A stretch of 64,000 nt of DNA from Planctomycetota bacterium (GTDB lineage Bacteria > Planctomycetota > Planctomycetia > Pirellulales > UBA1268). The translations under genes were made by a program, and so were the position numbers. The DNA lies in contig JAGWWA010000004.1 of NCBI GenBank assembly GCA_018970605.1, forward strand, positions 2,289-66,288, in the 5' to 3' direction. The notes under the pieces are model-generated. The model saw only the letters and a program-made list of their open reading frames with translations. It was not told the origin of the DNA and searched no databases. Shown here piece by piece: positions 1 through 62,530 of the stretch (its first letter is position 1; each line of letters starts with the position of its first letter).

Positions 1-912
1 TGGGCCGGCATGCCGGCCGCCGACGGCACGCGCCTCGGGCAGGCCACGAGGCACGGCTACGTGGTGATCGCGCCGGCCTGGAGCGAGCCGCAGCAGACGA
101 GCTACGCCTGCTCGCCGCGCGAGCATCACGCCGTGCTCGCCTCGCTCCGCGAGGCCCTGCGACGATTCTCGATCGACAGCGATCGCGTGTATCTCTCCGG
201 CCATTCCCTCGGCGGCGAGGCCGCCTGGGACGTGGCCCTGTCGCATCCCGATCTCTGGGCGGGCCTCGTGATGGTGGGGCCGACGGCCGGCCGCTACGTG
301 AGCCACTACTGGCCCAACGCCAGGTCGCTGCCGATCTACGTCGTGGCCGGTGAACTCGACCGCGCCGTGGTGCAGCGGGATGCGACGGAACTCGACCGGT
401 ATTTCCTCCGTGGATTCGACGCGACCTACGTGGAATATCGCGGCCGCGGCCACGAGCACTTCTCCGACGAACTCCTGCGGCTGTTCGACTGGATGAGCCG
501 GAAGCGGCGGGATTTCTTCCCGAAGGAATTCGAGGCTGTGACGATGCGGCCCTGGGACCGGTTTTTCTGGTGGGCCGAGATCGAGGGGATGCCGCCGAAG
601 ACGGTCGTGCTGCCCGAGCACTGGCCGCCGACGAACGGCAGCCGCCCCCTGCGACTCGAGGCGAAGGCCGGAACGACCAACACGCTCTCGGTGCGGTGCG
701 GCGCCGACAGGGTCAAGGTGTGGTTGTCGCCCGAACTCATCAATTTCGGCGAACCGGTCAACGTGACAATCGACGGCCGCAAGCCACTCAATGGCCGGAT
801 CGCACCCGACATCCGGGTCATGCTGGAGGACATCCGTCTCCGGGCCGACCGCCAGCATCCGTTCTGGGCGGTCGTCGAATCCGCTCGCGGGCAGCCGAAG
901 CAAATGCCGTAA
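1..912 (+). CDS. alpha/beta-hydrolase (esterase/peptidase-like); 5' end probably off-window
   Basis: The frame is open from nt 1 (track ORF 10..912). It has a nucleophile elbow GHSLGG, followed by acidic and His residues (GRGHEHF) in the order of a Ser-Asp-His hydrolase. About 130 aa of C-terminal extension is unassigned. Confidence 0.75.
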   Translation, partial: WAGMPAADGTRLGQATRHGYVVIAPAWSEPQQTSYACSPREHHAVLASLREALRRFSIDSDRVYLSGHSLGGEAAWDVALSHPDLWAGLVMVGPTAGRYVSHYWPNARSLPIYVVAGELDRAVVQRDATELDRYFLRGFDATYVEYRGRGHEHFSDELLRLFDWMSRKRRDFFPKEFEAVTMRPWDRFFWWAEIEGMPPKTVVLPEHWPPTNGSRPLRLEAKAGTTNTLSVRCGADRVKVWLSPELINFGEPVNVTIDGRKPLNGRIAPDIRVMLEDIRLRADRQHPFWAVVESARGQPKQMP

Positions 913-927
913 GAGCGCACGCGAAGG

Positions 928-957
928 CCCCCATCGCTTACGCGATTGGGCTTCCTG
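928..957 (+). repeat. Family-A 30-nt interspersed repeat (CCCCCATCGCTTACGCGATTGGGCTTCCTG), copy 1
   Basis: Exact 30-mer, seen again at 1131..1160 and 62271..62300, and with one change at 9153..9182. It contains the hairpin ATCGC-TTAC-GCGAT, which reads as a GUAA loop on the minus strand. Confidence 0.9.
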
Positions 958-1130
958 AAGACATCACAGAGGCGAGCGAGGGGCTGCCCGTGCCCGAGAG
1001 CCGGGCTGTGGGAGCAAGCGAAGCCACGATGGCGGAGCGCAGCGGACACGCAGGGAGCCGAGGCCTGGAGGGCCGAGGGGAACGTCCGGCGACGGGCATG
1101 GGCAGACCCGAGCGGCGCACCACCCGAAAG

Positions 1131-8034: not shown

Positions 8035-9003
8035 CTACGTCCGGGCCGTCCAGCCGTACGGCACGTAGCGACTCTCCACCGTGCCGTCGTCGTGGAGATC
8101 GACCACGGCGTAGCCGAAGTCGGTACCACGGTGCTTGCCCTTCCACCAACTGGCCGAGACAGCGCCGTTGCAGAGGTAGCTCACGCCACCGAACTCGATC
8201 CGTTCCACGATGTGGAGGTGGCCGCTGAGGCAGGTCTTGACGTTGGGGTGCTTCGCGAAGAGTTCCTGGAACCGCTGATGATCGACGTGCACCATGCCGC
8301 CCGACACGCTGAAGGCCGGCTTGCCATCGGTGCCCGCTCCACCTGGCTTCGCCGTGGCCAGCGGGTTGACCGAGAGGATCGGGATGTGCGAGACGATCAC
8401 CACCGGCGTGGCCGCGGGCACCGCCTCGAGGTCTCTCTGAAGCCAGTCCCACTGGGCATCGTCGATCTTGCCGATGTACCCGTCCTCGTGCGGAAAGACG
8501 CTGTCGAGGAGGACGACGTGCCAGCCGCCGCGGTTGAAACTCTCGTAGGGAAGGGCCCGGCCGAACTGCTCGCAGGCCCACTTCTTCCCGTAGAGGTGTT
8601 CGTCGCCCATGGTTCCGGCTTTTGACTTTGTCCAACCCCAGACGTCGTGGTTACCCACGACGCTTTTCACCTCGAGGCCGCAGGCGTCGGCCTTCACCTT
8701 CTTCCAGAGGTCCCACTGCGTCTGCGTGCGGTCGCGGCCCGCCTCCATGCAGTCCATGATCGTGTCGCCGCCGGTCACGATCAGGTCGACGGCGGCCTCG
8801 CCGCGCTCAGGCAGCGACTGCACGTGGGCGAAGCAGGCGGCGAGGCCCTTGGCGCTTTCGAGTTCCGGCTGGACGTGGATGTCGGTGAGGTGGGCGATCC
8901 GCAAGGACCGCCGGGCAGACGGGCCAGACTCCGCCCGGGCCAGCGAGGGCAGCGTGGCAGCACCGGCGAGTCCGGCTTTCACAAGCGAGCGACGGGTGAG
9001 CAT
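8035..9003 (-). CDS. Tat-signal metallophosphoesterase (calcineurin-like)
   Basis: Start moved to ATG 9003 (MLTRRSLVKAGLAGAATLPSLARA, a twin-arginine leader). The track ORF continues upstream into the repeat region. Motifs: HLTDIH, TGGD, GNHD, SHIP, GHLH. Confidence 0.85.
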   Translation of the reverse strand: MLTRRSLVKAGLAGAATLPSLARAESGPSARRSLRIAHLTDIHVQPELESAKGLAACFAHVQSLPERGEAAVDLIVTGGDTIMDCMEAGRDRTQTQWDLWKKVKADACGLEVKSVVGNHDVWGWTKSKAGTMGDEHLYGKKWACEQFGRALPYESFNRGGWHVVLLDSVFPHEDGYIGKIDDAQWDWLQRDLEAVPAATPVVIVSHIPILSVNPLATAKPGGAGTDGKPAFSVSGGMVHVDHQRFQELFAKHPNVKTCLSGHLHIVERIEFGGVSYLCNGAVSASWWKGKHRGTDFGYAVVDLHDDGTVESRYVPYGWTART

Positions 9004-9055
9004 CGAAGTGTCTCCTGAAAGTTCGTGACGTGTCAAAAGCGGGGGCTGGCTCAGC

Positions 9056-9129
9056 CAGGAAGCGTAACCGCGTGAGCGGTACGGCTGCCCCTCCGCCCAG
9101 CAAGCGTAACGCCGTAAGGCGTACGGCTG
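9056..9129 (+). repeat. Two family-B repeat units (consensus CAGGAAGCGTAACGCCGTAAGGCGTACGGCTGCCC)
   Basis: Units at 9056..9090 and 9098..9129. The first carries ACCGC-GTGA-GCGGT where the consensus has ACGCC-GTAA-GGCGT: two compensatory pair swaps and a GNRA-to-GNRA loop change. Confidence 0.85.
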
Positions 9130-9152
9130 AAGCACGTCGGACGTCGCCGCTG

Positions 9153-9182
9153 CCCCCATCGCTCACGCGATTGGGCTTCCTG
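9153..9182 (+). repeat. Family-A repeat, copy 3 (one substitution: GCTCAC instead of GCTTAC)
   Basis: 29/30 identity to the 30-mer. The substitution changes the minus-strand loop from GUAA to GUGA. Confidence 0.85.
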
Positions 9183-9203
9183 ACCCGCACGTCGCAACCG
9201 CCT

Positions 9204-9238
9204 CAGGAAGCGTAACGCCGTAAGGCGTACGGCTGCCC
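9204..9238 (+). repeat. Family-B repeat unit
   Basis: CAGGAAGCGTAACGCCGTAAGGCGTACGGCTGCCC, the same unit as at 9098 and in the 62.3-kb array. Confidence 0.85.
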
Positions 9239-9256
9239 GTTTCCACGGCGGGCACG

Positions 9257-9517
9257 TCACCGCGGATGGCACGGCGGACGGCGCTCGTATTCCCCGAGTC
9301 GATCCTCCCAGGCGTCCCAAAAGGCCTGCGTCATGAGCGACACGACGTCCTCGCTCGGAGGGCCTCCCAGCCGGCGGCCCATGACGATGATGATCGCACC
9401 CCGCAGACCGAGTTTGGCAAACCGCGGATCGTGAACGACGAACTCCATCAGTTCGTTGACGGCGTCGATCGTGAACACCGCGTTCGCAGCGAGCGTGCCT
9501 GGTGATGATGTCGTCAT
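9257..9517 (-). CDS. small hypothetical protein (86 aa)
   Basis: Internal ATG at 9517 preceded by GAGGA (MTTSSPGTLAANAVFTIDAVNELMEFVVHDPRF...). Composition is protein-like and I recognise no family. The longer track ORF (to 9634) has an implausible N-terminus. Confidence 0.4.
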   Translation of the reverse strand: MTTSSPGTLAANAVFTIDAVNELMEFVVHDPRFAKLGLRGAIIIVMGRRLGGPPSEDVVSLMTQAFWDAWEDRLGEYERRPPCHPR

Positions 9518-9518
9518 C

Positions 9519-9547
9519 GGTGAATCCTCGTGAAGACTCGTGAAACC
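9519..9547 (+). promoter_or_regulatory. Direct-repeat element (TCGTGA hexamers at 10-nt spacing; minus strand reads TTCACGAGTC-TTCACGAGGA-TTCACC)
   Basis: Seen directly in the 155-nt divergent gap between the small ORF and the propeller-phosphoesterase gene. Related copies are at 9641..9658, 31897..31916 and 58971..58989. The function is inferred only. Confidence 0.25.
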
Positions 9548-9672
9548 TGCCTGCCCCGCCGCCGTCGGAGTTATTTGACCCCGGAACGATGAGGATTTGA
9601 TGTTGTTCCTGGAGCTTGCGCAGCGACCGGCCACGTCGTCCGTGAGAATCTCGTGAGCGACGGCGGCACGAC

Positions 9673-12351
9673 ATGTTTCGGCGGGTACAACGGCGGTCGT
9701 TCGGCCGGCTGACCGGCGTTGGTACGATGCCGCAACGAGGTTCCCGCATGCTTGGCTCCCGACCCATTCTCAGCAGCCTGACGGTCGCGGTGCTGGCCCT
9801 GACCACCGCCCGGGCCATCCACGCCGGGGAGCCCGGTCCCCAAACGCCCGCACCGCAGACCCCCGGACCGCAACCCGACGGATCGGTAATCCTGCCGAAC
9901 CAGTGGTCGCTCCGCCCCGCAGGCCGGCAGGTTGGCGTCGGCGACTTCCCCGCGTCGATCGCCATGCACCCCAACGAGCGGCACGCCGTCGTCCTGCATT
10001 GCGGCCACGGCCCGCACGAACTCGCCGTGCTCGACGTCGTGGAGCGGAAACTGCTCTCGCAGACCCGGCTTGAAGAGTCGTTCCAAGGACTCGCCTTCTC
10101 CCGCGACGGTGACCGGCTCTGGGTGTCGGGAGGCGCCGCCGAGACGCTCCTCCGCTTCCGGTTCGTCGAGGGCACGCTGGTGCCCGACGGCTCCGTGGCC
10201 CTGCGAGACGCGAAACTGCGGGGAATCCCCTGCGGCATCGAGATCGCCGATGCCGACGGCACGGTCTACGTCGCCAACGTCTGGGGACACTCGATCTCCC
10301 GCATCCGCCCGGGGGCCGACGGCGCCGCCCCGCTCGTGGACGAGCTGCTGCTGACCGACACCGCGCCGAAGCCCGGCCCGGCGATCCCCGACTCCCCGGA
10401 ACCGTCGATCACGAAGCGGGCCGACGCACTGCTCGACAAGGCCGTCGCCAACGCCCCGCACCCCTGGACCTGCGTCGCCGACGACCGCCGCGGCCGGCTC
10501 TACGTGTCGCTCTGGGGCCAAGCGGCTGTGGCGGTGATCGACACCACGCAGTGGAGCATCGTGCAGCGCATCGCCGTCGAAGACCATCCCAACGAGATGG
10601 TGATGTCGCCCGACGGCGCGCGGCTGTTCGTGGCCAACGCGAACCGCAACAGCGTGTCGGTGATCGACCTCGACGCCGGCAAGACGACCGAAACGCTCGT
10701 CGCCACGCTCTCGGCCGACGCCCCGCCGGGCAACACCCCCAACTCCCTGGCGATCTCGACGGATGGCTCGCGGCTGTTCGTCTCAAACGCCAACATCAAC
10801 GCCCTGAGCGTCTGGGACGTGGCAGAGCAGGGCAGGGCGCGAAGCCTGGGCTTCATCCCGGTCGGCTGGTATCCGACGGCGGTCCGGCTCTCTGCCGACG
10901 GCGCGCGGCTGCTCGTGGCCAACGGCAAGGGTGTGATCTCCGATTCCAACCGCAACGGACCGCGGCCGGGCTACGACCCCGACGCCCCCACGCCGGACTA
11001 CATCGGGGGCTTGTTTGATGGCACCGTGTCGTTCATCGATCTTCCGGAGGACGAGTTCGAGAAACGAATGCACGCCTGGACGGCCCGCGCGTTCGCCTGC
11101 CGCCCGCCCCAGGCCGACGACGTGTTCACGGCCGAGGAACTGGAAGGCCATCCGATTCCTCTCCAGCCCGGCCAGCCGAGCCCGATCACCCACGTGATCT
11201 ACGTCATCAAGGAAAACCGCACCTACGACCAGGTGTTCGGCGACATGCCGGAGGGACATGGCGATCCCACGCTCTGCCTGTTCCCCGAACGCGTCACGCC
11301 AAACCATCACGCGCTCGCGCGGCAGTTCGTCCTGCTCGACAACTTCTACGTGGAGAGCGAAGTCAGTGCCGATGGCCACGAATGGTCGATGGGGGCCTAC
11401 GCCACCGACTTCGTGGAGCGTCACTGGCCGCTCTCCTACGGCCACAACAAGCGAAAGAAGTTCACCTACCCGAGCGAAGGCAACTTCGAGATCGCCCGCC
11501 CGGCGGGCGGCTACATCTGGGATCGGGCGATCGCGGCCGGGGTCAGCTTCCGCAGCTACGGGGAGTGGGTGGACAACGGCCCGACGCCCGATGCCCCCGG
11601 AAAGCCCAAGGCCAAGGCCCTCGAGGGCCGGATCGACCCGCTGTTTCGCAGCTTCGACCAGGAGTATTCCGACCTCAAGCGGGCCGACCGCTTCATCGCC
11701 GAACTGTCGCGATTCGAGAAGGAGGGCGACATGCCGCGGCTCCAGATCGTCCGGCTGCCCAACGACCACACGAGCGGTGCCAAGCCCGGCTCGCTGACGC
11801 CGACGGCGTTCGTCGCCGAGAATGATCTCGCCCTCGGCCGCTTCGTGGAGGCGGTGAGCCGCTCGAGGTTCTGGCCCACCACGGCAATCTTCGTGGTCGA
11901 AGACGACGCCCAAAATGGCTCCGATCACGTCGATGCCCATCGCACCGTGGCGCTAGTGATCAGCCCCTGGACGCGGCACGGCGTCGTCGACTCGAGCCTC
12001 TATTCGACGAGTTCGATGCTGCGGACGATCGAACTGATTCTCGGCCTCGAGCCCATGTCGCAGTTCGACGCCGCGGCGCTGCCGATGATCCGCTCGTTCG
12101 CGAAGGCGCCGGTGCTCGCGGCCTACGAGTGCCGGCCCGCGACCGTGCCGCTCGACGAGCGCAACGTGGCCGGCGCCTGGGGCGCGAAGCAATCCCTCGC
12201 GATGGACTTCTCGAAGGAGGACGCGACGGACGACCTGCTGCTCAACGAGATCGTCTGGAAGAGCGTCCGCGGGGCCGATTCACCGATGCCCGCGCCCCGC
12301 CGGGCCGCGTTCGTGTTCGCAGCGGACGAGGATGACGAAGAGCAGGATTAG
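9673..12351 (+). CDS. beta-propeller (YncE-like) / AcpA-PLC-type phosphoesterase fusion, secreted
   Basis: Signal peptide (MLGSRPILSSLTVAVLALTTARAIHA, so the true start may be ATG 9748). Repeated propeller blades (YVANVWGHSIS, LFVANANRNSVSVID, LFVSNANINALSVWD). Phosphoesterase core ITHVIYVIKENRTYDQVFGDM, LPNDHTSG, VVEDDAQNGSDHVDAHRT. Polyacidic tail ADEDDEEQD. Confidence 0.85.
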   Translation: MFRRVQRRSFGRLTGVGTMPQRGSRMLGSRPILSSLTVAVLALTTARAIHAGEPGPQTPAPQTPGPQPDGSVILPNQWSLRPAGRQVGVGDFPASIAMHPNERHAVVLHCGHGPHELAVLDVVERKLLSQTRLEESFQGLAFSRDGDRLWVSGGAAETLLRFRFVEGTLVPDGSVALRDAKLRGIPCGIEIADADGTVYVANVWGHSISRIRPGADGAAPLVDELLLTDTAPKPGPAIPDSPEPSITKRADALLDKAVANAPHPWTCVADDRRGRLYVSLWGQAAVAVIDTTQWSIVQRIAVEDHPNEMVMSPDGARLFVANANRNSVSVIDLDAGKTTETLVATLSADAPPGNTPNSLAISTDGSRLFVSNANINALSVWDVAEQGRARSLGFIPVGWYPTAVRLSADGARLLVANGKGVISDSNRNGPRPGYDPDAPTPDYIGGLFDGTVSFIDLPEDEFEKRMHAWTARAFACRPPQADDVFTAEELEGHPIPLQPGQPSPITHVIYVIKENRTYDQVFGDMPEGHGDPTLCLFPERVTPNHHALARQFVLLDNFYVESEVSADGHEWSMGAYATDFVERHWPLSYGHNKRKKFTYPSEGNFEIARPAGGYIWDRAIAAGVSFRSYGEWVDNGPTPDAPGKPKAKALEGRIDPLFRSFDQEYSDLKRADRFIAELSRFEKEGDMPRLQIVRLPNDHTSGAKPGSLTPTAFVAENDLALGRFVEAVSRSRFWPTTAIFVVEDDAQNGSDHVDAHRTVALVISPWTRHGVVDSSLYSTSSMLRTIELILGLEPMSQFDAAALPMIRSFAKAPVLAAYECRPATVPLDERNVAGAWGAKQSLAMDFSKEDATDDLLLNEIVWKSVRGADSPMPAPRRAAFVFAADEDDEEQD

Positions 12352-13716: not shown

Positions 13717-16416
13717 TCACTCGTCGTCCTCATCATCCTCGTCGTCTCCGCCGCTGGTCGCCCATGCTGGATAGGGAGCCGCCGATCCCTTCATCGCGTG
13801 CCAGAGCACGCGGTTGAGGGCGTCTTCCGGTGCCTTGTCAACCTCGCGGAAGTTCATCGCGGCACTGGCCAGCGCGCCCGCCTTGAGCACGGGATCGAGG
13901 ATCGCCTTCGGATCGGCGTTCATCTGGTCGAGTGGCACGGTGGCCGGACGGGACACGAACGGCGTCGGGTCGGCAAGGTCGGTGAAGCAGTCGGTCATCG
14001 GGGTCGCCGACGCATCGAACTGGTTGAGCGGCGGCATGCCGAGGATCTGCCCAATCGTCCGCAGGATGCTCGTCGTGTTGTAGCGGGTGCTGACCGTCGC
14101 ACCCCGCTTCACGTGGGGGCCGGCGACGTAGACCGTCGTGCGGTAGCCGCTCACGTGATCCCAGCCATCCTGCGGGTCGTCTTCGATCGCGAAGATCGCC
14201 ATCTTCGGCCAGAATCGGCTCTTCGACAGCGCCTCGACGATCCGGCCAAGCGCCAGGTCGTTGTCGGCGACGCAGGCGGCGGGCGTGGGGCAGCGGGGGT
14301 CGGTGCCGCTGGTGTGGTCCTGCGGGAGACAGATGATCACGAGGTTTGGATAGCGTCCCTGCCGCTCGTAGTCGGCGAGTTCGCGAAGGATGAAGTCGGC
14401 CCGAAACTGGTCGGGCACGCTCATGTCCCAGCCCACGCAACCGGACGGGGAGAAGGGGCGGATCGATTCGATCGCCGGTTCGCTGGCGAACCTCACCTCG
14501 CCCGCATCGGGGCCCGCCCGCCAGCCCGCGAAGCAGGCGGCGAAGTCGGGGCGGCCCGGCCGCGTGGCATCCCGCCAGCGGACCCGCGGCATCATGAACT
14601 CGCCGTAGTTGCGGATCGTCTTGCCGTGCTTGATGGCGCTATCCCAGAGGAAGCCAGCCGGCGACCAGGCGATCGCGTCGGTGTCGGCGTCCTCCATGCC
14701 GTCGGGGTAACTCCGTGGAAAGCCCGCGAAGCTCCGCTCCAGGTAGTTCGTGGCGACGGCCGAGGTGCTCCAGTTGTGACCGTCGGCCGAGAGGATGCCG
14801 CAGCAGTAGGCGTTGTCGAGGAGCACGAACTCGCTGGCGAGCGCGTGCTGGTTGGGCGTGATCTCGGCGCCGAAGATGCAGAGTTCGGGCCGGCCGTTGC
14901 CCTGGGGCATGTCGCCGAGCACCTGATCGTACGTGCGGTTTTCCTTGATCACGTAGACCACGTGCTCGATCAGGCTCGGCTCACCGATCCGCTCGGGGAT
15001 CGCCCGTGGCGGCTGGTCAGGCCGCGGAGGGGCGAAGGCGTCGCGGATCGCTCCGGCGCGCATGTTGCGGGCCACGCGTTCCGAGAGCGGCGGTAGGTCG
15101 TCGTCGCCGGGGATCGGCAGGATCGACACCGAGCCGTGATAGTGGTGGGAGTTGAACCCTTCGGAGGCACCGCGGGGCTTTGGTTTCACGGGTAGCCCCT
15201 TGATGTTGGCAACCGCCAGCCGCTGCCGCGCCGAATCAACGACGACGGCTCCCGGATGCCAGCCGACCGGAATCAGTCCGAGCAGCTTCGTGCCCCCTTT
15301 CTCCTCCGGCTCCCAGTCCATCACCGCCACCGCGTTTTGCGCGCCGTTGCAGACATAGAGCCGCTCGCCGTCTGGGGAGAACGCCAGGGCGTTGGGCATT
15401 GCCCCGTAAAGGTCCGCCGGGGTGCGTTTCGTCCAGACCGTGTCCACCACATCGCCGGTCGTGACGTCGAGGATGCTGAGCGTGTCGCCAGCCGAGTTGA
15501 CGCAGACAACGTGGCGGCCATCCGGGGCAACGGCAAGCGCCGACGCATGCAGGCCGACGAGCACCTCGCGCACGGCATCGGTGCCCAAGTCGACGATGTT
15601 CACCGTGCCCTCGCTGGCGATGTGCCGCACGGGATCGACGCGGACTCGCGTCCCTTTGCCGGCCGGTCCCGTCAGGTCGTCAGGCCCGGGGCGGCGGCCT
15701 CCCCAGTTGCTCACGAACGCCCGGTCGCCGACGAGGATGACGTCATACGGCGCGACGCCGACGTCGAAGGTGCGGAGCACGTCGCCGGTGGCCGCGTCGA
15801 TCTCGAACAGCCGGTTCGAGAGGTTGCCGCAGACGTAGAGTCGGCGGCCGTCCGCCGAGACGGCGAGGCCGCTGGGAATCTCGCGGGCCCGCTCGGGGGC
15901 GTTGGCCGAAGGAAGCTGGATCGAATACGAGGGCACGACCGTCGCGTCGCGCACGGCAAACACCTTCACCGAGCCATGCACGTTGCTCATGTAGAGCCGG
16001 CGACCGTCGGGGGCGAAGACGAGGCCCGTGTAGCTCTGGATTGCCTGCCCGTCGGGCTTGAGATTCCGGTCTGAATCGTCGTCGCCGGCCGGCCTGAAGG
16101 CGTCATCCGCAGGAGGCTGCACGCGGCCGAGGACCGCGCCGCTGGCAGGATCGAGCAGGACGATCTCGTTCGTCTTTCCCGAGGTCGCGAGGATGCGGCC
16201 ATCGGGCGACAGGGCGAGCACCTGCGGCCGCAGCCCCGGCAGCTCGACCTGCACGCCCACCGGGGTCACGATCTGGTTGACCGGCAGCACGGTTGTGTCG
16301 CCGTCGGACCGTCCCACGACGGCGGTGATGTCCGGGCCCTCGTCGGCCGCTCGGCCGGAGGCGGAGATCAGCGCCAGCAGCGCGGCGCCAAGGTGCAGGG
16401 GGGCGATCAGCCGCAT
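13717..16416 (-). CDS. beta-propeller / AcpA-PLC-type phosphoesterase fusion, paralog of 9673..12351
   Basis: Start at ATG 16416 (MRLIAPLHLGAALLALISASGRAADE) preceded by GAGGAG. Core IEHVVYVIKENRTYDQVLGDM, LPQDHTSG, IEDDPQDGWDHVSGYRT. Polyacidic tail GGDDEDDEDDE. Confidence 0.85.
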   Translation of the reverse strand: MRLIAPLHLGAALLALISASGRAADEGPDITAVVGRSDGDTTVLPVNQIVTPVGVQVELPGLRPQVLALSPDGRILATSGKTNEIVLLDPASGAVLGRVQPPADDAFRPAGDDDSDRNLKPDGQAIQSYTGLVFAPDGRRLYMSNVHGSVKVFAVRDATVVPSYSIQLPSANAPERAREIPSGLAVSADGRRLYVCGNLSNRLFEIDAATGDVLRTFDVGVAPYDVILVGDRAFVSNWGGRRPGPDDLTGPAGKGTRVRVDPVRHIASEGTVNIVDLGTDAVREVLVGLHASALAVAPDGRHVVCVNSAGDTLSILDVTTGDVVDTVWTKRTPADLYGAMPNALAFSPDGERLYVCNGAQNAVAVMDWEPEEKGGTKLLGLIPVGWHPGAVVVDSARQRLAVANIKGLPVKPKPRGASEGFNSHHYHGSVSILPIPGDDDLPPLSERVARNMRAGAIRDAFAPPRPDQPPRAIPERIGEPSLIEHVVYVIKENRTYDQVLGDMPQGNGRPELCIFGAEITPNQHALASEFVLLDNAYCCGILSADGHNWSTSAVATNYLERSFAGFPRSYPDGMEDADTDAIAWSPAGFLWDSAIKHGKTIRNYGEFMMPRVRWRDATRPGRPDFAACFAGWRAGPDAGEVRFASEPAIESIRPFSPSGCVGWDMSVPDQFRADFILRELADYERQGRYPNLVIICLPQDHTSGTDPRCPTPAACVADNDLALGRIVEALSKSRFWPKMAIFAIEDDPQDGWDHVSGYRTTVYVAGPHVKRGATVSTRYNTTSILRTIGQILGMPPLNQFDASATPMTDCFTDLADPTPFVSRPATVPLDQMNADPKAILDPVLKAGALASAAMNFREVDKAPEDALNRVLWHAMKGSAAPYPAWATSGGDDEDDEDDE

Positions 16417-16417
16417 G

Positions 16418-17128
16418 TCAGTGTGCTCCTCTGACGCGAGTGGCCGAGGGACTTCCCTCGCGGATGTGCACCTGGGCGTTGAAGGCGATGAGCACGCGAT
16501 CCTTGCCTCCGCGGTAGGGGAGGCCGCTGTGAAGCAGATACGAGGGAAACAACACCAGCAGGCCATCTTCGAGCGGCACGTCCATCGTTTCGTTGAGGTA
16601 CTTGTTGCCGTAGTCCCGGTACAAGCCGCCGGTGATCAGCGGCGAGTAGAAGCGGCTGCCGCCGTTCGGGGCTCCAGGGGAATCGCCTCGCCCCGACTCG
16701 CCGATCTGGAGGTAGACGATCCCGCACCAGCTGCAGCCATGGTGATGATGGGCGTCGTGAAAGCCACCGTCGTTGGTGATGTGGTACCAGCTGTCCACGA
16801 ACGTCACTACGAGGTCGTGCGGCGGCACCTCCTGCCCATTGGCCACGCTCGCCGCCATCGCCAGCGACGACTCAATGAAGCGGACGAGTTTCGTGAGTTT
16901 TTCGTGAGGCTCTCGAAAGAGATCGAAACTGCTCTCGTAGAGTCCGCGACCCGACTTGGCGGCCACCGCCACGTTGCTGTCAACGGCGCTGGCCTGCCTC
17001 GATTGAAGCTCACGAAGAAAAGCTATGATGTCGGGGCCTTCGCCGGCGAACTCACGCCAGCGTCGCGTGAAGAGCATCGTCGGCCAAGCCTGAAAGCCTT
17101 GCAGATCAAATCGCTCGGTGTCGGGCAT
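16418..17128 (-). CDS. TIGR02466/PF13759-type putative 2OG-Fe(II) oxygenase-like protein
   Basis: Start at ATG 17128 (MPDTERF...) preceded by GGAGAG. WYHITNDGGFHDAHHHHGCSWCGIVYL and LLVLFPSYLLH...RVLIAFNA match the family pattern as I remember it. The stop lies 1 nt from the next gene's ATG. Confidence 0.72.
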   Translation of the reverse strand: MPDTERFDLQGFQAWPTMLFTRRWREFAGEGPDIIAFLRELQSRQASAVDSNVAVAAKSGRGLYESSFDLFREPHEKLTKLVRFIESSLAMAASVANGQEVPPHDLVVTFVDSWYHITNDGGFHDAHHHHGCSWCGIVYLQIGESGRGDSPGAPNGGSRFYSPLITGGLYRDYGNKYLNETMDVPLEDGLLVLFPSYLLHSGLPYRGGKDRVLIAFNAQVHIREGSPSATRVRGAH

Positions 17129-24103: not shown

Positions 24104-27100
24104 TCAGACCAACGAGAAGGCGGACTTCTTGCGTCCCGTACCGACCTGCGACTCCGCCGCAAACGCGGCAAAGGCGGCTTCGACCGGTGTCACCGACGAA
24201 CCAGACGCAGATGCCGGGGCCTCGGTCGCGGGCAGGTAGTTTCCGACGTCATAGAGGCTGGCACCGAGGAGGTCCGCCAAGTCAAGTTGATCGACGACTC
24301 CATCGTGGTTGAAATCACCGCTGATCCAGTCGGCCGGCGTGCCGGCGTCGAGTTGGCCACTGCCCAGGAAGTTGGCGAGATCGCCAATGTCCACGCTGCC
24401 GTCGAGGTTTGAGTCGCCAGGTGCCGCGTAGCCGACGGTGAATGACCCGCCGTTATCCATCCACCCGAGCGTCCGAGCAGGGGTCGACGCCACGACCGTC
24501 GATGTGAAGCCCGCGATGCCATTCCACGAGCCATCGCCCTTGCCGGCGTTGATCGCGGCCAGGATCGACGTCCGATTCAGGCCCGACTGGGCCGTCAGCT
24601 TGCCTGCCCCGAAGTCGAGGAGGCCACCGGTGGCCAGAACGAGCGAGGTGATGTCAACGGTGCCAGTGCCGACGTCGAGCACCACCTTCGCCCCAGCCTG
24701 GACTTCCAGCGCACCGCTGCCAAGGGCCGCCAGGTTCTTCACGACCAGCGTGCCGGCCGTCACGACCGTGCCACCCGAGTGGGTGTTGGAGCCCGTGAGG
24801 ACGAGCATGCCCGTACCCTGCTTCACGATCCGCTCGGCACCCGAGTGGACGGTCGAGTCCGTCTGGGTCTGGCCAGACGGGACATCGACGATCGTGCCGT
24901 CAGCTCCGACGCGGCCCGGCGAGCCGGTGTCGGCGGCATTGTAGACCGCCGACGTCGGGTGGAGAGCCCCGTCGGTGCCCGCCACCGAGGCACGCCAGTT
25001 CGTGCCCACGTCGGTGTCGCCAGTCAGATTCTTGAGGTAATGGCTCGAGCCGGCCACGTACGCCGGCCACACCGTGCCGTCTTCGGCAAAGTTCGCCGTG
25101 TTGCGGGTCGTGCCCGAAGCATCCTTCAGAACGAACATCTCGTTGACCCGGGTGGGCGAGTTGTCGAGATCACCCCACACCAACCCAACGACTCCCGCCG
25201 TCGCTGGCACGTTCCAGGCCGCGCGGAACTCACTCGCTGTGCCAACCCAGTTGTTGTACAGCACGAGCACACCCCCGGCCGGGATCGTGGTTCCTGCAGG
25301 AATCGCGCCCCACTTGATGGTGTCTTCGTCGTCGAAGTACCAGTTGCCGACATCGGCCGTGCTCGACCCGCGGTTGTAGAGTTCGACCCATTCCGTGGCC
25401 GTGTCTCGGCTGCCGGACTGCGACGAGTCGTACATGATCTCCGAGATCACCACCTCGCCCACGTCGTTGTCGGCGATCGACACGCTCGTGGTCCCGGCGA
25501 CGAAGCTTGCCGCCGTGGCCGTGAACGTCACCGGTCGCGTGCCCCGGTAGCGGGCATCGTTCACGATCGTGATCGGGAACGTCACCGACTCCTGGCCGTT
25601 CGGAATCGTCACCGTGGCGGGCACCGTAGCGGCACCCGTGTCGCTGCTGGCAAGCGTCACGACCAGGTCGCCGACCGTGCCGAGGTTCCTCGTGACCGTG
25701 CCCGTCAGCGGGGCATCACCTTCGGTCGCTGCCGCCGCGGCAGTGACCGTCAGCGTCGCGGCGTCGGCCGTGGTGAAGTTCCACGTCGTCGGCGAGCTGA
25801 TGCCGGGGCTCGGCAGGCCGTCCACGGTGCCCTTCACGATGATATTGTCGATCGCCCACCACCAGTCGTTCGTCCCAGTGTTCGTCCAGCGGAAGACCAT
25901 CGTGCCATCGTCGGGGTTCTGCACCGACACCGTGCGGTGCTCGTTGACGTTGGCAGCCGTTGAGCTGCCGAGCGTGTTGCTCGAGTCGAGCGTCAGCAGA
26001 TTGGTCCAGGTCGCCCCGGCGTCGTAGCTCACGTCGAGGAAGCCCTGCATGTTGTCGGGCGTGTAGGGCGTGAACGAACCGCCACTTTCCGGCCGGAAGC
26101 TCGAGTCAAACTCGAGCGTCACCGAACTGGCGGCCACGGTGGCGAGATTGATCGGCGTGGACAGCAGCTTCGCGTTGAAGCTGTTCTTGGGATAGTAGCC
26201 GTAGTCATCCCACTCGTCGGTGTCGGCCACGGCGACCGTGCCCGAACCGAGCGTGAAGTTCGCCCGGCTCTGGCCACCCTCGGTGGTCCAGAAGTTCTTG
26301 TTGGCGAACGTCCATCCCCGCCACTCCGGCGCCCCGCCGAATGGCATGGCCGAGTTGTCGGTGGTCCAGCCGCCCGGCGGCGTGGCGGTGAACTCCTTGC
26401 CGCCCTGCAAGCCCACCGTCTCGTAGACGGCCGGTCCCAGCGGGAGCAGTTCGAAGTCTTGCTTGAGGAGTTGCACGCCGCTGGTGACAAAGGACGACGC
26501 GCTGAGGACGGCGCCGTTGTCGATCAGGATGTAGTAGTCGGTCAGCTTGACCAAATCGCGGACCGGATTGATCGTCAGCGTGGAGCCGCTGATCGACACC
26601 TCCGCGGAGTTGATGTCGATCATCTTCTCCGCCTTGTTGTCGGAGGACCGGACGATGTAGATGAACCCGTTGCCCTTCTTGATGGCCTGGTCGTAGGTGA
26701 CCACGCCGTTGGCCGAGACGGCCACGGCGGTCGCGTTATCGGCTGGCGAGAAGTTCGTCGGCTTGGGGAAGTCGTCGTCGAGCACCGTCACGGTGGCCGA
26801 GACCGAGAAGAAGTCGGTCGCGGTCGCGGTGATCACCGAGGTCTGAGAACCGTCGGAGAGAAGATCATCGACACCCGAAATCGAGAACGTCACCGACGAC
26901 TGGCCGTCGGGGATCGTCACGGTGGCGGGCACCGTGGCTGCCGTGGTATCGCTGCTGGCGAGCGCCACGACGAGCGCGCCCGACGTGCCGGCGGCGACAT
27001 TGCGGGTGACAGTGCCCGTGGCAACGCCGCCGTTCTCGCTGATCGACGCCGGAGTCAACGTGACCGTGAGGGTCGGGGCTTCGGCCGTGGTCACGCTCCA

Positions 27101-29584
27101 CGTTGCGGTGTCGTCGATGCCCGCGTAGGGCACGCCCTCCTTCTCACCACGAACGACGATGTTGTCGATGGCCCACCACCAGTTGTTGTCGCCTTCGAAA
27201 TAGCCGAACTTGAACTTCATCTGGCCCGATGAAGGACTGTTGAGCGGGGCATCGACCGTAGCGCCCTGCACGTACTGACCCGCGGTGTTCGAAGCCGACA
27301 CCGTGATGTGGTTGTTGAGGGCACTGTTGGTGTTAGCGGCGTCGCCGAAGAAGAGCAGCGGCGACCAGGTCGCCCCATCGTCGTACGAGACCTCGACGGT
27401 GCCGTACTGCGGGAGTTCCTTGTTGTAGCTGGAGTCAAACTCGAGGGTCACAGTGCCGGGCGTGATGCCGGAGAGATCGATGGACTTCGTGATGAGGAGA
27501 CTGTTGAACCGACCCGCGGCGTGCGAGACGTCATCCCACTCGTCGGAGTCGGCCACGGCCACGGTGCCGGTGCCGAAGCTGAACCGACTGCGATCCTGAT
27601 CGCCGGCGGTCGTGATCCAAGAGTTCTTGTCGACGAACGTCCAGCCCTGGAAGTCGGACTGGCTGGCCGGCATCTGCGAGTTGTCCACCGTGAAGCCCGC
27701 CGGGAGCTCACGGGTAAAGTCGGTGCCGTCACCGCGCGGCTCGGTGACAAACGGGCCGAGGGGGAGACGATCGAACGTCTCGGTGAGCAGAACCGCGTTG
27801 CTGGTGAGCGTGCTGCTCGTGTCGAGGAAGGCACCGTCGTCGATCAGCAACGAGTAGCCGGTGAGGCCCTTGAGGTTGATCGGCGGGTCGATCGTGACGG
27901 TCGAGCCCGAGACGACGACGGCCGACGACTTGACATCGAGCGTGGCGCCGATCCAACCGGTGGCCGTCTCGACGATGTGGATGTTGCCGCTGCCCTTCTT
28001 CACCGTCGTGCCGAAGGTGAGGCTGAAGTTCGCCTTGTAGCCGACGCCGGTGGCGTTATCGGCCGGAGTGAGCGTGAGGACCTTCGGGCCCTCATCGTCG
28101 ACCACGTTGATCGAGGCCGTGCTCTGGGCGTAGACCACCGACGTGGCAGTGATCGTCACCTTTTGCGTCCGGTCGCTGAGGTTGTCGTCGACGGCCGTGA
28201 TGGGAAAGGTGACCGACGACTGGCCGTTCGGAATCAGCACCGTGGCCGGGACCGTAGCCTCGGTGGTGTCGCTGCTCGAGAGCGTGACCAGCACGTCGCC
28301 GACCGGCAGGTTGTTGCGAGAGACGGTCGCCGTGGCGGTGCCGCCGTTCTCGCTCATTGAACCGGGGTTGATTGCGAGGGTCAGCTTGGGCGACTCGGGC
28401 GTGGTGAAGTTCCAGAACGTGGCGTCGGAGAGGCCTGCATATTCGCCACCGACGATGTTCCCGGTGATCTTCATGTTGTCGACGCCCCACCACCAGTCGT
28501 TCGTGCCTTCCGTGTAGAAGCGGAACACGAGCGAGCCGCTGTTGGGGTTGACCACGGCACCGAAGGTGGCGCCGCCCTTGCCGTCGCCGCTCACGCCGGT
28601 CGAGGTGCCCGAGACGAGCCGCTCATTGATGCTCTTGTTGACGAAACTCGCGCTGCCGGCGGTGTTCGTGGTGTTGAACTCGTTGAGGGTCAAGAGAGTG
28701 GACCACGTGGTCCCGCCGTCGTAGCTCACATCGAGTTTGCCGGTCTGGGCCTCACCGGGGCCTTCAGGGCGGAAGCTCGAATCGAACTCGAGCTTCACCG
28801 AACCAGCCGCCACGCCCGTCAGATCAACGGGCTTGGTGGTGACATAGCTCTTGAACGCCCCGCCGTTGGGGGCGTCGTCGAACTCGTCGGTGTCGGCAAC
28901 CATGATGCCGCCCGAGGCAAGCGTGAACTGATCGCGGTTCTGGCCTTCGGGTGCACCGGCCTGTTTGATCCAGGAGTTCTTGTCGGCGGCCACCCAGCCC
29001 TTCCACTCCTCCTTGCCGCCGGTCGGCATCTCGCTGTTGTCAACGGTGAAACCGAGCGCTATGTTCGGGCTCCAGTCGGTGCCGTCGCCGCCTCCGTCGG
29101 TCACGAACGGCTGCAGGGGCGTGAAGTCGAAGTTCTGCTGGAGGAGCGTGGCACCGGTGGTTGGGGTCGACGAGGTGTCAATGAACGCGCCCTTGTCGAT
29201 GTACACCGAGTAGGTGTTGTCGAGTTCGAGGTCGGTCGGGAGGTCGACCGTCACCTGATTGCCGCTGACCGACACGTTCGCCGACCGCACATCCACTGCC
29301 ACGCCCGTCGTGCCCGTGCCCTGCCGGACGACGTAGATGTTGCCCTGGCCCTTGATCACGTTCTCGTTGAACGTGAACACCAGATCGCTGTTGAGCGGGA
29401 CGTTCGTCGAGCCGTCGAGCGGGGCAATGCCCGTCACCGAGAGCGCGAGCATGTTGCGGTTCTCAAACCGCTCCAGGCTGGAAAGCCCACCGAGCCGCCG
29501 GGGATGGCGGGCCTGGCGTGACTGAAACAGGCTCTTGAGGGCGGTCGCGAACGAGGCAGCGGTCGGGCGGCGGCGTAACGACAT
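24104..29584 (-). CDS. giant multi-domain surface protein (1826 aa): 3x [Ig-like + WWW-motif beta-sandwich + Calx-beta-like], lamin-tail domain, PATR beta-strand repeats, dockerin-like repeats
   Basis: Start at ATG 29584 (MSLRRRP...RRLGGLSSLERFENRNMLA). Three supermodules of about 437 aa ending NDWWWGVDNM / NNWWWAIDNI / NDWWWAIDNI. LTD motif VVISEIMYD...EWVELYN. PATR repeat GTGMLVLTGSNTHSGGTVVTAGTLVV. GDSNLDGSVDIGDL / GDFNHDGVVDQLDL. Confidence 0.85.
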   Translation of the reverse strand: MSLRRRPTAASFATALKSLFQSRQARHPRRLGGLSSLERFENRNMLALSVTGIAPLDGSTNVPLNSDLVFTFNENVIKGQGNIYVVRQGTGTTGVAVDVRSANVSVSGNQVTVDLPTDLELDNTYSVYIDKGAFIDTSSTPTTGATLLQQNFDFTPLQPFVTDGGGDGTDWSPNIALGFTVDNSEMPTGGKEEWKGWVAADKNSWIKQAGAPEGQNRDQFTLASGGIMVADTDEFDDAPNGGAFKSYVTTKPVDLTGVAAGSVKLEFDSSFRPEGPGEAQTGKLDVSYDGGTTWSTLLTLNEFNTTNTAGSASFVNKSINERLVSGTSTGVSGDGKGGATFGAVVNPNSGSLVFRFYTEGTNDWWWGVDNMKITGNIVGGEYAGLSDATFWNFTTPESPKLTLAINPGSMSENGGTATATVSRNNLPVGDVLVTLSSSDTTEATVPATVLIPNGQSSVTFPITAVDDNLSDRTQKVTITATSVVYAQSTASINVVDDEGPKVLTLTPADNATGVGYKANFSLTFGTTVKKGSGNIHIVETATGWIGATLDVKSSAVVVSGSTVTIDPPINLKGLTGYSLLIDDGAFLDTSSTLTSNAVLLTETFDRLPLGPFVTEPRGDGTDFTRELPAGFTVDNSQMPASQSDFQGWTFVDKNSWITTAGDQDRSRFSFGTGTVAVADSDEWDDVSHAAGRFNSLLITKSIDLSGITPGTVTLEFDSSYNKELPQYGTVEVSYDDGATWSPLLFFGDAANTNSALNNHITVSASNTAGQYVQGATVDAPLNSPSSGQMKFKFGYFEGDNNWWWAIDNIVVRGEKEGVPYAGIDDTATWSVTTAEAPTLTVTLTPASISENGGVATGTVTRNVAAGTSGALVVALASSDTTAATVPATVTIPDGQSSVTFSISGVDDLLSDGSQTSVITATATDFFSVSATVTVLDDDFPKPTNFSPADNATAVAVSANGVVTYDQAIKKGNGFIYIVRSSDNKAEKMIDINSAEVSISGSTLTINPVRDLVKLTDYYILIDNGAVLSASSFVTSGVQLLKQDFELLPLGPAVYETVGLQGGKEFTATPPGGWTTDNSAMPFGGAPEWRGWTFANKNFWTTEGGQSRANFTLGSGTVAVADTDEWDDYGYYPKNSFNAKLLSTPINLATVAASSVTLEFDSSFRPESGGSFTPYTPDNMQGFLDVSYDAGATWTNLLTLDSSNTLGSSTAANVNEHRTVSVQNPDDGTMVFRWTNTGTNDWWWAIDNIIVKGTVDGLPSPGISSPTTWNFTTADAATLTVTAAAAATEGDAPLTGTVTRNLGTVGDLVVTLASSDTGAATVPATVTIPNGQESVTFPITIVNDARYRGTRPVTFTATAASFVAGTTSVSIADNDVGEVVISEIMYDSSQSGSRDTATEWVELYNRGSSTADVGNWYFDDEDTIKWGAIPAGTTIPAGGVLVLYNNWVGTASEFRAAWNVPATAGVVGLVWGDLDNSPTRVNEMFVLKDASGTTRNTANFAEDGTVWPAYVAGSSHYLKNLTGDTDVGTNWRASVAGTDGALHPTSAVYNAADTGSPGRVGADGTIVDVPSGQTQTDSTVHSGAERIVKQGTGMLVLTGSNTHSGGTVVTAGTLVVKNLAALGSGALEVQAGAKVVLDVGTGTVDITSLVLATGGLLDFGAGKLTAQSGLNRTSILAAINAGKGDGSWNGIAGFTSTVVASTPARTLGWMDNGGSFTVGYAAPGDSNLDGSVDIGDLANFLGSGQLDAGTPADWISGDFNHDGVVDQLDLADLLGASLYDVGNYLPATEAPASASGSSVTPVEAAFAAFAAESQVGTGRKKSAFSLV
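25465..29443 (-). repeat. Three tandem coding repeats of about 1.31-1.36 kb inside the giant gene
   Basis: Module starts are near 29443, 28083 and 26765. The WWW landmarks near 28485, 27175 and 25860 give a period of about 1310 nt. Confidence 0.75.
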
Positions 29585-29761
29585 GAGAGACTCCCGGTTT
29601 CGCGTAGGGCGTTGGGTGAACGAAGACGAACAGGCGACGTTATGAACTTCTTCGATGAGGACATCACCAGAGTTCCGTGAGTTTTCGATGAAAATCTCGT
29701 AGCGGTCTGACAAGGGACATCGCCCGTTCGAGCTACCGAAGGGCTTTTTCGAGGGATCTGT

Positions 29762-55297: not shown

Positions 55298-55376
55298 GGT
55301 GACACCTGGGGGGGAACGTGTGCGATGCGAAACGAGGCGGGCGGACAGCAGGATCGACGGGCAGCCACGGGGCTCG

Positions 55377-55895
55377 TCACCCAGGCGGCTTGGCGGCACG
55401 CGTGGTGAGATCGAACGGGGCAATGCTGGACGACATCCGGCCGACGGAGGCCTTGAGCGGCGACGTCTCCGGGTTCGCGAACCGGCCACCGAGGCGGTCC
55501 ACCTCGGTCGCGTTGGCCGCGGCGGCAGCCTCGGGATCGTCCGACGTGCTCGTCGCCTTCTCGGGGCCTCCGGCGAACCACTCCGCCGTGACGACGTACT
55601 CACCCACCGGCGCGCCGTCGGCCATCTCGTAGGTGCCGATCACGAACGAACCGTCGGATCCGGTGCGGGCCGTTGGACGAAGTTTCTCGAGCCTCGTGTC
55701 ACCGGCGTTGATCGGATGAAGCACCACCTGCACGCCCGCCACCGGCTTCCCGTCGACCCGGACGGTTCCCTGGGCCGGCACCGTGGCGAGCCGATCCGAG
55801 CCGCAGCCGACGACGGCAACCACGGCGACGCATGCCACCACCGCGACGACGAACGAGGCAGCACCTGGCGGAACGTGCAGGACTGGGCTGGACAC
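55377..55895 (-). CDS. small lipoprotein with carboxypeptidase-regulatory-like domain (paralog of 23567..24091)
   Basis: Lipobox VAVVGC, then AQGTVRVDGKPVAGVQVVLHP...TGSDGSFVIGT...GEYVVTA. Confidence 0.7.
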   Translation of the reverse strand: MSSPVLHVPPGAASFVVAVVACVAVVAVVGCGSDRLATVPAQGTVRVDGKPVAGVQVVLHPINAGDTRLEKLRPTARTGSDGSFVIGTYEMADGAPVGEYVVTAEWFAGGPEKATSTSDDPEAAAAANATEVDRLGGRFANPETSPLKASVGRMSSSIAPFDLTTRAAKPPG

Positions 55896-62252: not shown

Positions 62253-62270
62253 CGCCGGCCTCGCACTCGG

Positions 62271-62300
62271 CCCCCATCGCTTACGCGATTGGGCTTCCTG
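62271..62300 (+). repeat. Family-A 30-nt repeat, copy 4
   Basis: Exact 30-mer. It abuts the family-B array head-to-head through the palindrome TTCCTG-AC-CAGGAA (62295..62308). Confidence 0.9.
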
Positions 62301-62302
62301 AC

Positions 62303-62530
62303 CAGGAAACCTCACGCCGTAAGCCGTACGGCCACCCCTCCCAGCAAGCGTAACGCCGTAAGGCGTACGGCCACCCCTCCCAGAAAGCGTAACGCCGTAA
62401 GGCGTATGGCCACTCGCCCAGGACACCTCACGCCGTAAGGCGTACGGCCACCCGCCCAGGACACCTCACGCCGGGACGCGTACGGCCACCCGCCCAGGAC
62501 ACCTCACGCCGTAAGGCGTACGGCTGCCCC
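62303..62530 (+). repeat. Tandem array of six 38-39-nt family-B units (no unique spacers)
   Basis: Units start at 62303, 62342, 62381, 62419, 62457 and 62495. Each unit is CAG(G/C/A)A..-ACGCC-GNRA-GGCGT-ACGGCC(A/T)CCC.... Unit 5 has a GGGA loop in place of GTAA. Confidence 0.9.

Follow-up and report, generated by a model that had tools for sequence, protein, structure and literature searches.

In Escherichia coli, the bacterial interspersed mosaic elements (BIMEs) contain two types of repetitive extragenic palindromes (REPs), y and z, which carry complementary stem changes, are always mutually inverted and are joined by linkers either of the head-to-head (H-H) or of the tail-to-tail (T-T) kind. 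BIME-2 is amplified in tandem, with a copy number that varies between strains depending on the locus, and TnpA_REP needs both the 5' tag of a REP and an irregularity of its stem, a mismatch (PMC3333891). Two super-families of REPs have been described, with GT[AG]G and CGTC tags, respectively (PMC3733652). In addition, the class 3 TnpA_Y1 genes are flanked by "atypical" hairpins, which have GTNA loops and the foot CnGA, in Planctomycetes, Acidobacteria and Legionella, the class 3 hosts treated by Quentin et al. 2018 being Planctopirus limnophila, Solibacter usitatus and Legionella pneumophila (PMC6006769). Here we compare with these systems a family of 34-nt hairpin units found at positions 9056-9238 and at two further places of a 64-kb stretch of Planctomycetota DNA (contig JAGWWA010000004.1, order Pirellulales), which is called the window in the following. 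We think that these units are REPs arranged in BIME-like mosaics and that they represent a REP-type family of the Pirellulales, a reading to which we assign a probability of roughly three in four. On this reading, the repeats at 9056-9238 are elements of an ordinary kind from a lineage that is under-described, and they are probably not a dedicated RNA gene.

A first-pass annotation of the window had distinguished two repeat families, A and B, at this locus. It had regarded them as inverted versions of one hairpin element, selected as an RNA (or single-stranded DNA) hairpin with a GNRA loop, and it had proposed a census with a covariation test as well as comparisons with REP/BIME and Rfam models.

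The hairpin unit, its stem classes and its arrangement

A covariance model built on the unit with its structure detects 13 units of one 34-nt element in the window, in three intergenic clusters (38-53 bits, with the next match at 15 bits). The pattern of box and loop matches 16 times, while 3.6 matches are expected and 16 were reached in none of 100 shuffles. It is borne out that families A and B are one hairpin element in opposite orientation. The order B, B, A (inverted), B between a small open reading frame (ORF) and a metallophosphoesterase gene was also read correctly, the first of these units belonging to a class that we call B'. On the strand that carries the GTRA loop, the unit is an asymmetric imperfect hairpin. 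It begins with the box CAGGAAGC (positions 1-8), which provides the unpaired foot CAGGAAG, and continues with a 3-bp lower stem (8-10/26-28), a bulged A (11), a 5-bp upper stem (12-16/21-25) and a C(GTRA)G loop (17-20). The 5-bp stem of the first-pass annotation is the upper one of these, and the lower stem and the bulged A had been missed. For RNA, folding energies of -13 to -20 kcal/mol are predicted, for DNA -8 to -9 kcal/mol. Among the unpaired segments conservation is highest in the box, which is exactly CAGGAAGC in 158 of 228 units; CGGGAAGC and CTGGAAGC occur as variants, and the recurrent variants CAGAAAGC and CAGCAAGC have lost the GGA in otherwise intact units. An alternative B hairpin, GCCGTA/TACGGC, was rejected, as it is supported by class B alone and not by B' or A.

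Lower and upper stem covary jointly, and the lower one reads CC/GG in units of family A and GT/AC in those of family B. About five stem classes cover most copies, namely A (CC-A-ATCGC/GCGAT-GG, 97 copies) and A' (CC-A-ACGGC/GCCGT-GG, 7 copies), which form the "CC" group, and B (GT-A-ACGCC/GGCGT-AC, 16 copies), B' (GT-A-ACCGC/GCGGT-AC, 45 copies in related genomes, the class to which unit 9056 belongs) and B'' (GT-A-ACGGC/GCCGT-AC, 4 copies), which form the "GT" group. Recombinants of lower and upper stems, such as CC with ACCGC, CC with ACGGC or GT with ACGGC, are still fully paired. Pairing is also the rule when units are chosen neutrally, by at least 7 of 8 box positions and a G-N-R-A loop with the stems left unconstrained: this gave 221 matches in 571 kb of Planctomycetota DNA, 173 of them with 8/8 Watson-Crick pairs, compared with 1 of 46 matches in control DNA. 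For the covariation test, 70 distinct units were used after 23 evident non-family matches had been discarded by eye. In this set 95% of the cells are paired (78% in shuffles), and changes on both sides are seen at five of the eight pairs (109 cells). The units have a covariation score of 0.466, compared with 0.178 in shuffles; none of 500 shuffles reached the observed score, and slid controls gave no more than 0.20. The stem differences are indeed compensatory, as had been claimed, and the covariation has statistical support. As a few classes were amplified, the independent compensatory events are few, roughly five or six.

In units picked by box and stems only, the loops are GTAA (106), GTGA (81), GTCA (9), GCAA (3), GGAA (1), GGGA (1) and a few odd ones. 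The second loop position is near-invariant (T in 196 of 214), and the third is A, G or C, so that the loop is best written GT[A/G/C]A. About 90% of the loops (192/214) fit GNRA, and the nine GTCA copies violate its R rule; the earlier statement that all loops stay GNRA does not survive the wider census. The pair that closes the loop is C-G in 68 of the 70 distinct units. In unit 62457, whose GGGA loop had been taken for a structure-preserving variant, this pair is broken (C·C), and the unit is a degenerate copy and not a clean GNRA hairpin.

A collection of species-representative genomes was scanned with a pattern in which only the box, the loop, two A's and two of the pairs, invariant ones, were fixed, and this gave at least 103 stretches. 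About 75 of these are from metagenome-assembled genomes (MAGs) of Planctomycetota, mostly Pirellulales (EUL_327, EUL_329, samp_4323, ME2002, ELA513, ZE-3NOV15-plancto6 and MAGs labelled Planctomicrobium and Kuenenia), and the remaining ones are single chance matches within coding sequence. The covariance model has at least 208 matches in the first 100 of these loci, and the strong ones come from about 10 Planctomycetota genomes.

The arrangement of the units follows a strict rule. Among neighbours within 150 nt, none of 40 direct pairs mixes the CC and GT groups and none of 58 inverted pairs is homotypic, a CC-class unit always being combined with a GT-class unit. Each strand of a cluster therefore bears one group as foot and hairpin and the other group as its complement. 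The gap between head-to-head units is most often 3 nt (15/31), usually with ATG between the boxes, and that between tail-to-tail units 11 nt (16/27). Closely spaced inverted doublets are frequent, 34 of 102 clusters being pairs. An alternating array in L090 has a period of 82 nt, its linkers being ATG and, on the tail side, a conserved stretch of 23 nt, and homotypic direct arrays with a period of 38-41 nt are found at 62303-62528 of the window and in L086 and L097. Of the clusters that could be classified, 63 of 67 are intergenic, and 43 of 95 start no more than 60 nt from a stop codon, many of them 2-60 nt past it. By gene calls that are crude and based on the third codon positions (GC3), the clusters of all loci lie between convergent, co-directional and divergent genes in 20, 35 and 8 cases, with a background of 56, 176 and 55. 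In the window, the genes on either side of a cluster are convergent in two cases and co-directional in one, and these flanking genes (hydrolase, metallophosphoesterase, GDPD, HD/ACT) are functionally unrelated.

Comparison with BIMEs, class 3 hairpins and Rfam families

The architecture of the family matches that of the E. coli BIMEs. Like the y, z1 and z2 REPs of BIME-1 and BIME-2, which are imperfect palindromes of 30-40 nt with an unpaired conserved 5' tag and a stem irregularity, the unit is short and imperfect (34 nt, 8 pairs, one bulged A). It is dispersed, extragenic and of high copy number, with 13 units in 64 kb of the window and at least 200 in about 10 genomes, and like E. coli REPs it is mostly located 3' of genes. 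There are two unit types with complementary stem changes, which alternate in orientation with defined linkers and stand in the same obligatory inversion as y and z. Tandem amplification (with the 82-nt period) and a copy number that varies between relatives are further common features. In contrast, CAGGAAGC takes the place of GTAG as the tag, one bulged A stands where E. coli REPs have a 2-nt mismatch in the stem, and the conserved GTRA tetraloop and the homotypic direct arrays set the Pirellulales family apart from E. coli REPs, as does the lack of a REP-associated tyrosine transposase (RAYT) gene in the sampled Pirellulales DNA. In the searchable literature, which was queried for the sequences of the units and for REPs of planctomycetes, no description of a CAGGAAGC-footed family was found.

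REPINs of Pseudomonas, which Bertels and Rainey reportedly introduced in 2011, are said to be defined by a long, nearly perfect hairpin that a doublet forms. The Pirellulales units often are closely spaced inverted doublets, too, but the halves of a doublet always differ in stem class, at about 10 of 28 positions, which makes such a long hairpin impossible; an inverted doublet of like REPs was not found, and strictly taken the units are no REPINs.

A distinct repeat with the canonical GT[AG]G foot (GTGGCCGCAGGTT...AACCTGCGG; GTAGCACAGGTT...AACCTGTG) occurs in L038, L058, L110, L027 and other EUL_327/EUL_329 loci. This second REP family has no copy in the window and often shares repeat islands with the A/B units and with a 146-nt element that is described below.

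The single hairpin resembles those of class 3. The hairpin of P. limnophilus, CACGAG-CCG-GAA-GC-GTGA-GC-GA-CGG (PMC6006769 Table S1), and the Pirellulales unit CAGGAAG-CCC-A-ATCGC-GTGA-GCGAT-GGG are alike in foot, lower stem and loop. More generally, both kinds of hairpin occur in the same host phylum and have an unpaired foot of 5-7 nt that starts with C-N-G, a lower stem of 3-4 bp that starts with C, an A- or G-rich interruption and an upper stem closed by C-G below a GTNA loop with GTAA/GTGA/GTCA variation, and both reach high copy numbers with tandem arrays. The C-G-closed GTNA tetraloop on an interrupted stem is thus present in the Pirellulales unit, with the bulged A as the interruption, whereas class 3 hairpins have a GA/GA or GAA/GA internal loop at this place. 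The upper stem has 5 bp, not 2 bp, and the foot is CAGGAAG, not CnGA(G): it contains C-N-G plus an extra G/A, and CAGA is found only in the minor variant CAGAAAGC. The link between the units and class 3 is a resemblance of the DNA substrate only.

Back-translation of the class 3 motifs (NHVH ... YV[VI]xEQ) to a DNA pattern retrieved 93 metagenomic loci with 79 intact genes. In the metagenome contigs L220 (13 copies), L226, L231 and L247, arrays of the hairpin GAGCCGGAAGCGTNAGCGACGG surround class 3 HUH-Y1 genes. The Solibacter-type hairpin GAGCCGCGACYGTNAGGGAGCG is also present in 71 IMG/VR contigs that are filed as viral (L120-L190), in some of them as 5-copy tandem arrays with a period of 67-69 nt; none of these 71 contigs encodes a Y1 protein. 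A search with the class 3 proteins gave 1920 relatives at E<=1e-5, and Pirellulales members could not be picked out, the best 120 of the 1920 all being Gemmataceae-like.

Neither in the window nor in the unit-rich loci is there a match at the gathering level of Rfam, and the class 3-type hairpin arrays also stay below threshold. The sole model with any signal is RF01687, the Acido-Lenti-1 RNA (13.5-13.8 bits, E about 1, compared with a gathering score of 37). It is likewise a short hairpin, with a U-N-A-C loop as on the strand opposite to the GTNA loop, but 23 of its 46 model positions are unmatched, and the unit family is outside every Rfam family. Domain V of group II introns, with its AGC triad, GNRA loop and bulge, was considered and rejected, because the units bulge on their 5' strand, have too short a lower helix and occur in tandem and inverted arrays.

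History of the locus and level of the constraint

The metallophosphoesterase orthologues were traced to their contigs and the sites were compared (percentages are those of the orthologue). With the same synteny, L287 (95%) has the same cluster plus one extra B unit, which results from a 32-nt indel inside unit 9098 and gives two tandem units there. L285 (86%) has B', B', A (with a GTAA instead of a GTGA loop) and a degenerate B, and B' units occupy the position of unit 9204. In L288 (81%) only decayed units of 30.9, 22.5 and 27.7 bits are left, while the contig has a perfect unit (51 bits) at another place. L289 (77%) and L290 (73%) differ in synteny and have no units. Of the class A unit 9149-9182, L287 and L285 accordingly retain a copy at the orthologous site, and that of L288 is decayed. 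Judged from the comparison of L285, L287 and L288, the cluster at 9056-9237 is old and vertically inherited, and its turnover can be described as one of whole units, by gain, loss and class replacement, with decay in situ possible at a given site. As whole units turn over and orthologous copies decay, the hairpin constraint appears to belong to the proliferating family and not to each locus. This is what a copying mechanism that requires the hairpin predicts, and it is not what a locus-specific RNA function predicts.

We therefore prefer to place the constraint on the REP units as DNA, where it would be imposed during their copying or maintenance. An HUH-Y1 (RAYT-like) enzyme would recognize the hairpin in single-stranded DNA by its 5' foot and stem irregularity; it may be of the class 3 type, as the hairpins of that class resemble the unit in foot, lower stem and GTNA loop. 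Arrays would grow and shrink by slippage or unequal exchange, and effects on mRNA, such as protection of 3' ends or intercistronic processing, would be a secondary result of transcription and not the cause of the structural conservation.

The units could instead be functional RNA hairpins, GNRA-capped stem-loops that stabilize the upstream mRNA, mark 3' ends or serve in processing or protein binding. The strong covariation, the roughly 90% of loops that fit GNRA, the stability of the predicted RNA hairpins and the many clusters that begin shortly past stop codons would all suit such a role, and REPs of other bacteria affect mRNA stability (PMC6006769). However, two-class clusters show half of their units as complements with a UYAC loop, and a sense transcript of 9056-9237 would contain three of its four units in this form and not as GNRA hairpins. 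Mismatches on the loop strand, 10 G·T and 10 A·C, are equal in number, so that neither strand is favoured by a tolerance for G·U pairs, and folding is about equal on both strands. The fixed T at loop position 2 with a variable position 3 is the reverse of a GNRA constraint, which would leave position 2 free. Moreover, no terminator-like site is found in 8900-9600, the hairpin tails of the family are GGGGGC or ACGGCTGCCC without a U tract, no Rfam family matches, and the orthologous copies decay (22-31 bits) instead of covarying. We consider this explanation unlikely, and the selected RNA hairpin with a GNRA tetraloop of the first-pass annotation is not upheld. That annotation had also named two outcomes that would speak against it, a lack of covariation, which was not observed, and a behaviour as plain REP DNA, which comes close to the evidence.

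It is very improbable that the units are binding-site arrays for a host protein, either a CsrA-like RNA binder that contacts the GGA in CAGGAAGC or, on DNA, a nucleoid protein or gyrase, with the hairpin presenting the box. The box is the best conserved unpaired segment, we take it to resemble the GGA-containing CsrA consensus, and tandem arrays would multiply the sites. The GGA is missing from the recurrent box variants mentioned above, for which reason the idea of a CsrA site is not supported. Also, hundreds of dispersed copies in both orientations beside unrelated neighbours are unlike a sponge RNA gene, and no binding protein was identified. Hardly any credence can be given to plain tandem or segmental duplication without structural constraint, in which the compensation would be an accident of few founder sequences. 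Only about five stem classes with roughly five to six independent compensatory events are seen, and arrays do expand via duplication, but the full pairing of all classes and recombinant stems, the 8/8 pairing of neutrally chosen copies and the covariation already contradict it, and copies are dispersed across many unrelated loci and genomes.

Several observations weigh against the REP/BIME reading itself. The foot is CAGGAAG(C) and neither GT[AG]G nor CGTC. A gene for a Y1/RAYT protein, of whatever class, was found neither in the window nor in 571 kb that surround the units, which is a few percent of each genome and leaves absence from the genomes unproven; the search combined a motif regular expression, phmmer (with RayT of E. 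coli as the query), a relaxed HUH...Y....Q scan in the vicinity of units and a hidden Markov model of the 79 class 3 proteins. The latter model found no homologue in the window or in the limited sample of Pirellulales loci, where no class 3 gene was found beside any unit, and an all-versus-all blastp for recurrent ORFs near the units returned mainly repeats that had been translated spuriously. The 93 class 3 loci contain CnGA-GCC...GTNA hairpins, and none of them contains a Pirellulales unit. In comparisons for empty sites (L098/L041, L103/L031), the intergenic DNA was too diverged or the synteny broken, and as no precise insertion polymorphism was recovered, mobility of the units is inferred only. 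Finally, the context statistics depend on the crude gene calls, and in co-directional spacers the units lean 39:20 to the gene strand, which also suits an RNA role and leaves room for some selection at the RNA level.

If the REP/BIME reading is correct, the architecture of two types with complementary stems, obligatory inversion, fixed linkers and tandem amplification extends to Planctomycetota, and REP biologists gain an independent system in which to ask why there are two unit types and which enzyme reads foot, bulge and loop. A bolder version, which we regard as possible but rather doubtful, is that the CAGGAAGC-footed, GTRA-looped units form a third REP super-family beside GTAG and CGTC, homologous to the class 3 HUH-Y1 hairpins and maintained in the Pirellulales by a class 3-like or new putative single-stranded DNA enzyme, and that the y/z-like obligatory inversion is a general REP/BIME requirement, whose origin or retention was independent of the E. 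coli system. If true, the inversion rule for two stem classes would not be an enterobacterial peculiarity. Most interesting here are the independent recurrence of this rule and a possible connection with the class 3 Y1 enzymes, which are poorly understood. Because covariation exists at the level of the family, such repeats can be mistaken for structured RNA genes.

Units and other features of the window

Coordinates of the units and of the genes beside the cluster at 9056-9237 (CM, covariance model score)
Feature	Position	Strand	Remarks
Unit, class A, loop GTAA	924..957	-	CM 48.2 bits; about 12 nt past the stop of a + strand hydrolase gene
Unit, class A, loop GTAA	1127..1160	-	CM 47.2 bits; direct repeat of unit 924, across the 146-nt element
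Metallophosphoesterase gene (downstream)	8035..9003	-	Pfam PF00149, E 6e-13; start codon 52 nt from nearest unit
Unit, class B', loop GTGA	9056..9089	+	CM 52.2 bits; CAGGAAGC-GTA-ACCGC-GTGA-GCGGT-ACGG
Unit, class B, loop GTAA	9098..9131	+	CM 44.8 bits; box variant, CAGCAAGC-GTA-ACGCC-GTAA-GGCGT-ACGG
Unit, class A, loop GTGA	9149..9182	-	CM 48.5 bits; CAGGAAGC-CCA-ATCGC-GTGA-GCGAT-GGGG; opposite in orientation to the B units beside it
Unit, class B, loop GTAA	9204..9237	+	CM 52.7 bits; CAGGAAGC-GTA-ACGCC-GTAA-GGCGT-ACGG
Conserved small ORF, 87 aa (upstream)	9257..9518	-	stop codon 19 nt from nearest unit
Unit, class A	62267..62300	-	CM 46.9 bits; faces the B array head-to-head, the 34-nt units being 2 nt apart
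Six B-type units in tandem, period 38-39 nt	62303..62528	+	CM 38.5-51.8 bits; found by repeat search; starts 62303, 62342, 62381, 62419, 62457, 62495

The four units at 9056-9237 fill part of a 253-nt spacer between two minus-strand genes. For the small ORF, a gene of 84-86 aa is called in the syntenic orthologous contigs L285, L287 and L288, and a Pfam search matched no family. Both Logan contigs with the metallophosphoesterase gene terminate inside unit 9056-9089, and many units in MAG loci lie within 50 nt of a contig end; such ends were noted at window 9084, in L014 and L015 and at many MAG contig ends. Short-read assemblies of Pirellulales break inside these repeats, and contigs often end in them.

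The cluster at 62267-62528 is flanked by the convergent GDPD (+) and HD/ACT (-) genes, and its array includes CAGGACAC/CTC variants besides the degenerate GGGA unit. At 62419-62528, three units have the box CAGGACAC and CTC in place of GTA, by which the + strand loses one lower-stem pair and the - strand gains G·U pairs (-19.8 kcal/mol for the opposite strand, compared with -11.5), so that this part of the array has more structure in the opposite orientation.

The cluster at 924-1160 consists of two direct A units, and window 1-1042 has 94% identity to an EUL_327 contig. As the metallophosphoesterase orthologue of an EUL_327-like contig reaches only 73% identity, the window stems from a relative within the Pirellulales and not from EUL_327 itself. 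Between the two units, at 975-1120 (+), lies the multi-copy element of about 146 nt, whose conservation in EUL_327, EUL_329 and ELA513 amounts to 80-92%. A closing stem of about 20 bp encloses a multibranch core, with compensatory changes at 13 of 44 predicted pairs, and as RNA the + strand folds with -79.6 kcal/mol (z -4.5), the - strand with -62.8 (z -1.1). An Rfam search gave no match for it, and it is a candidate for a structured RNA or a miniature inverted-repeat transposable element.

Two very large genes on the - strand, 24104-29761 and 44555-55639, contain long internal repeats, with units of a 1.3-kb period at 25510-28333 and duplicated blocks of about 4.4 kb at 47718-54767, and look like genes for giant, repetitive proteins of the surface or adhesin type. 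An inverted repeat of 181 nt with 77% identity (11169-11349 and 14806-14986) lies inside the genes 9673-12351 (+) and 13717-16635 (-), which suggests that these are paralogous genes of the lactonase/phosphoesterase type.

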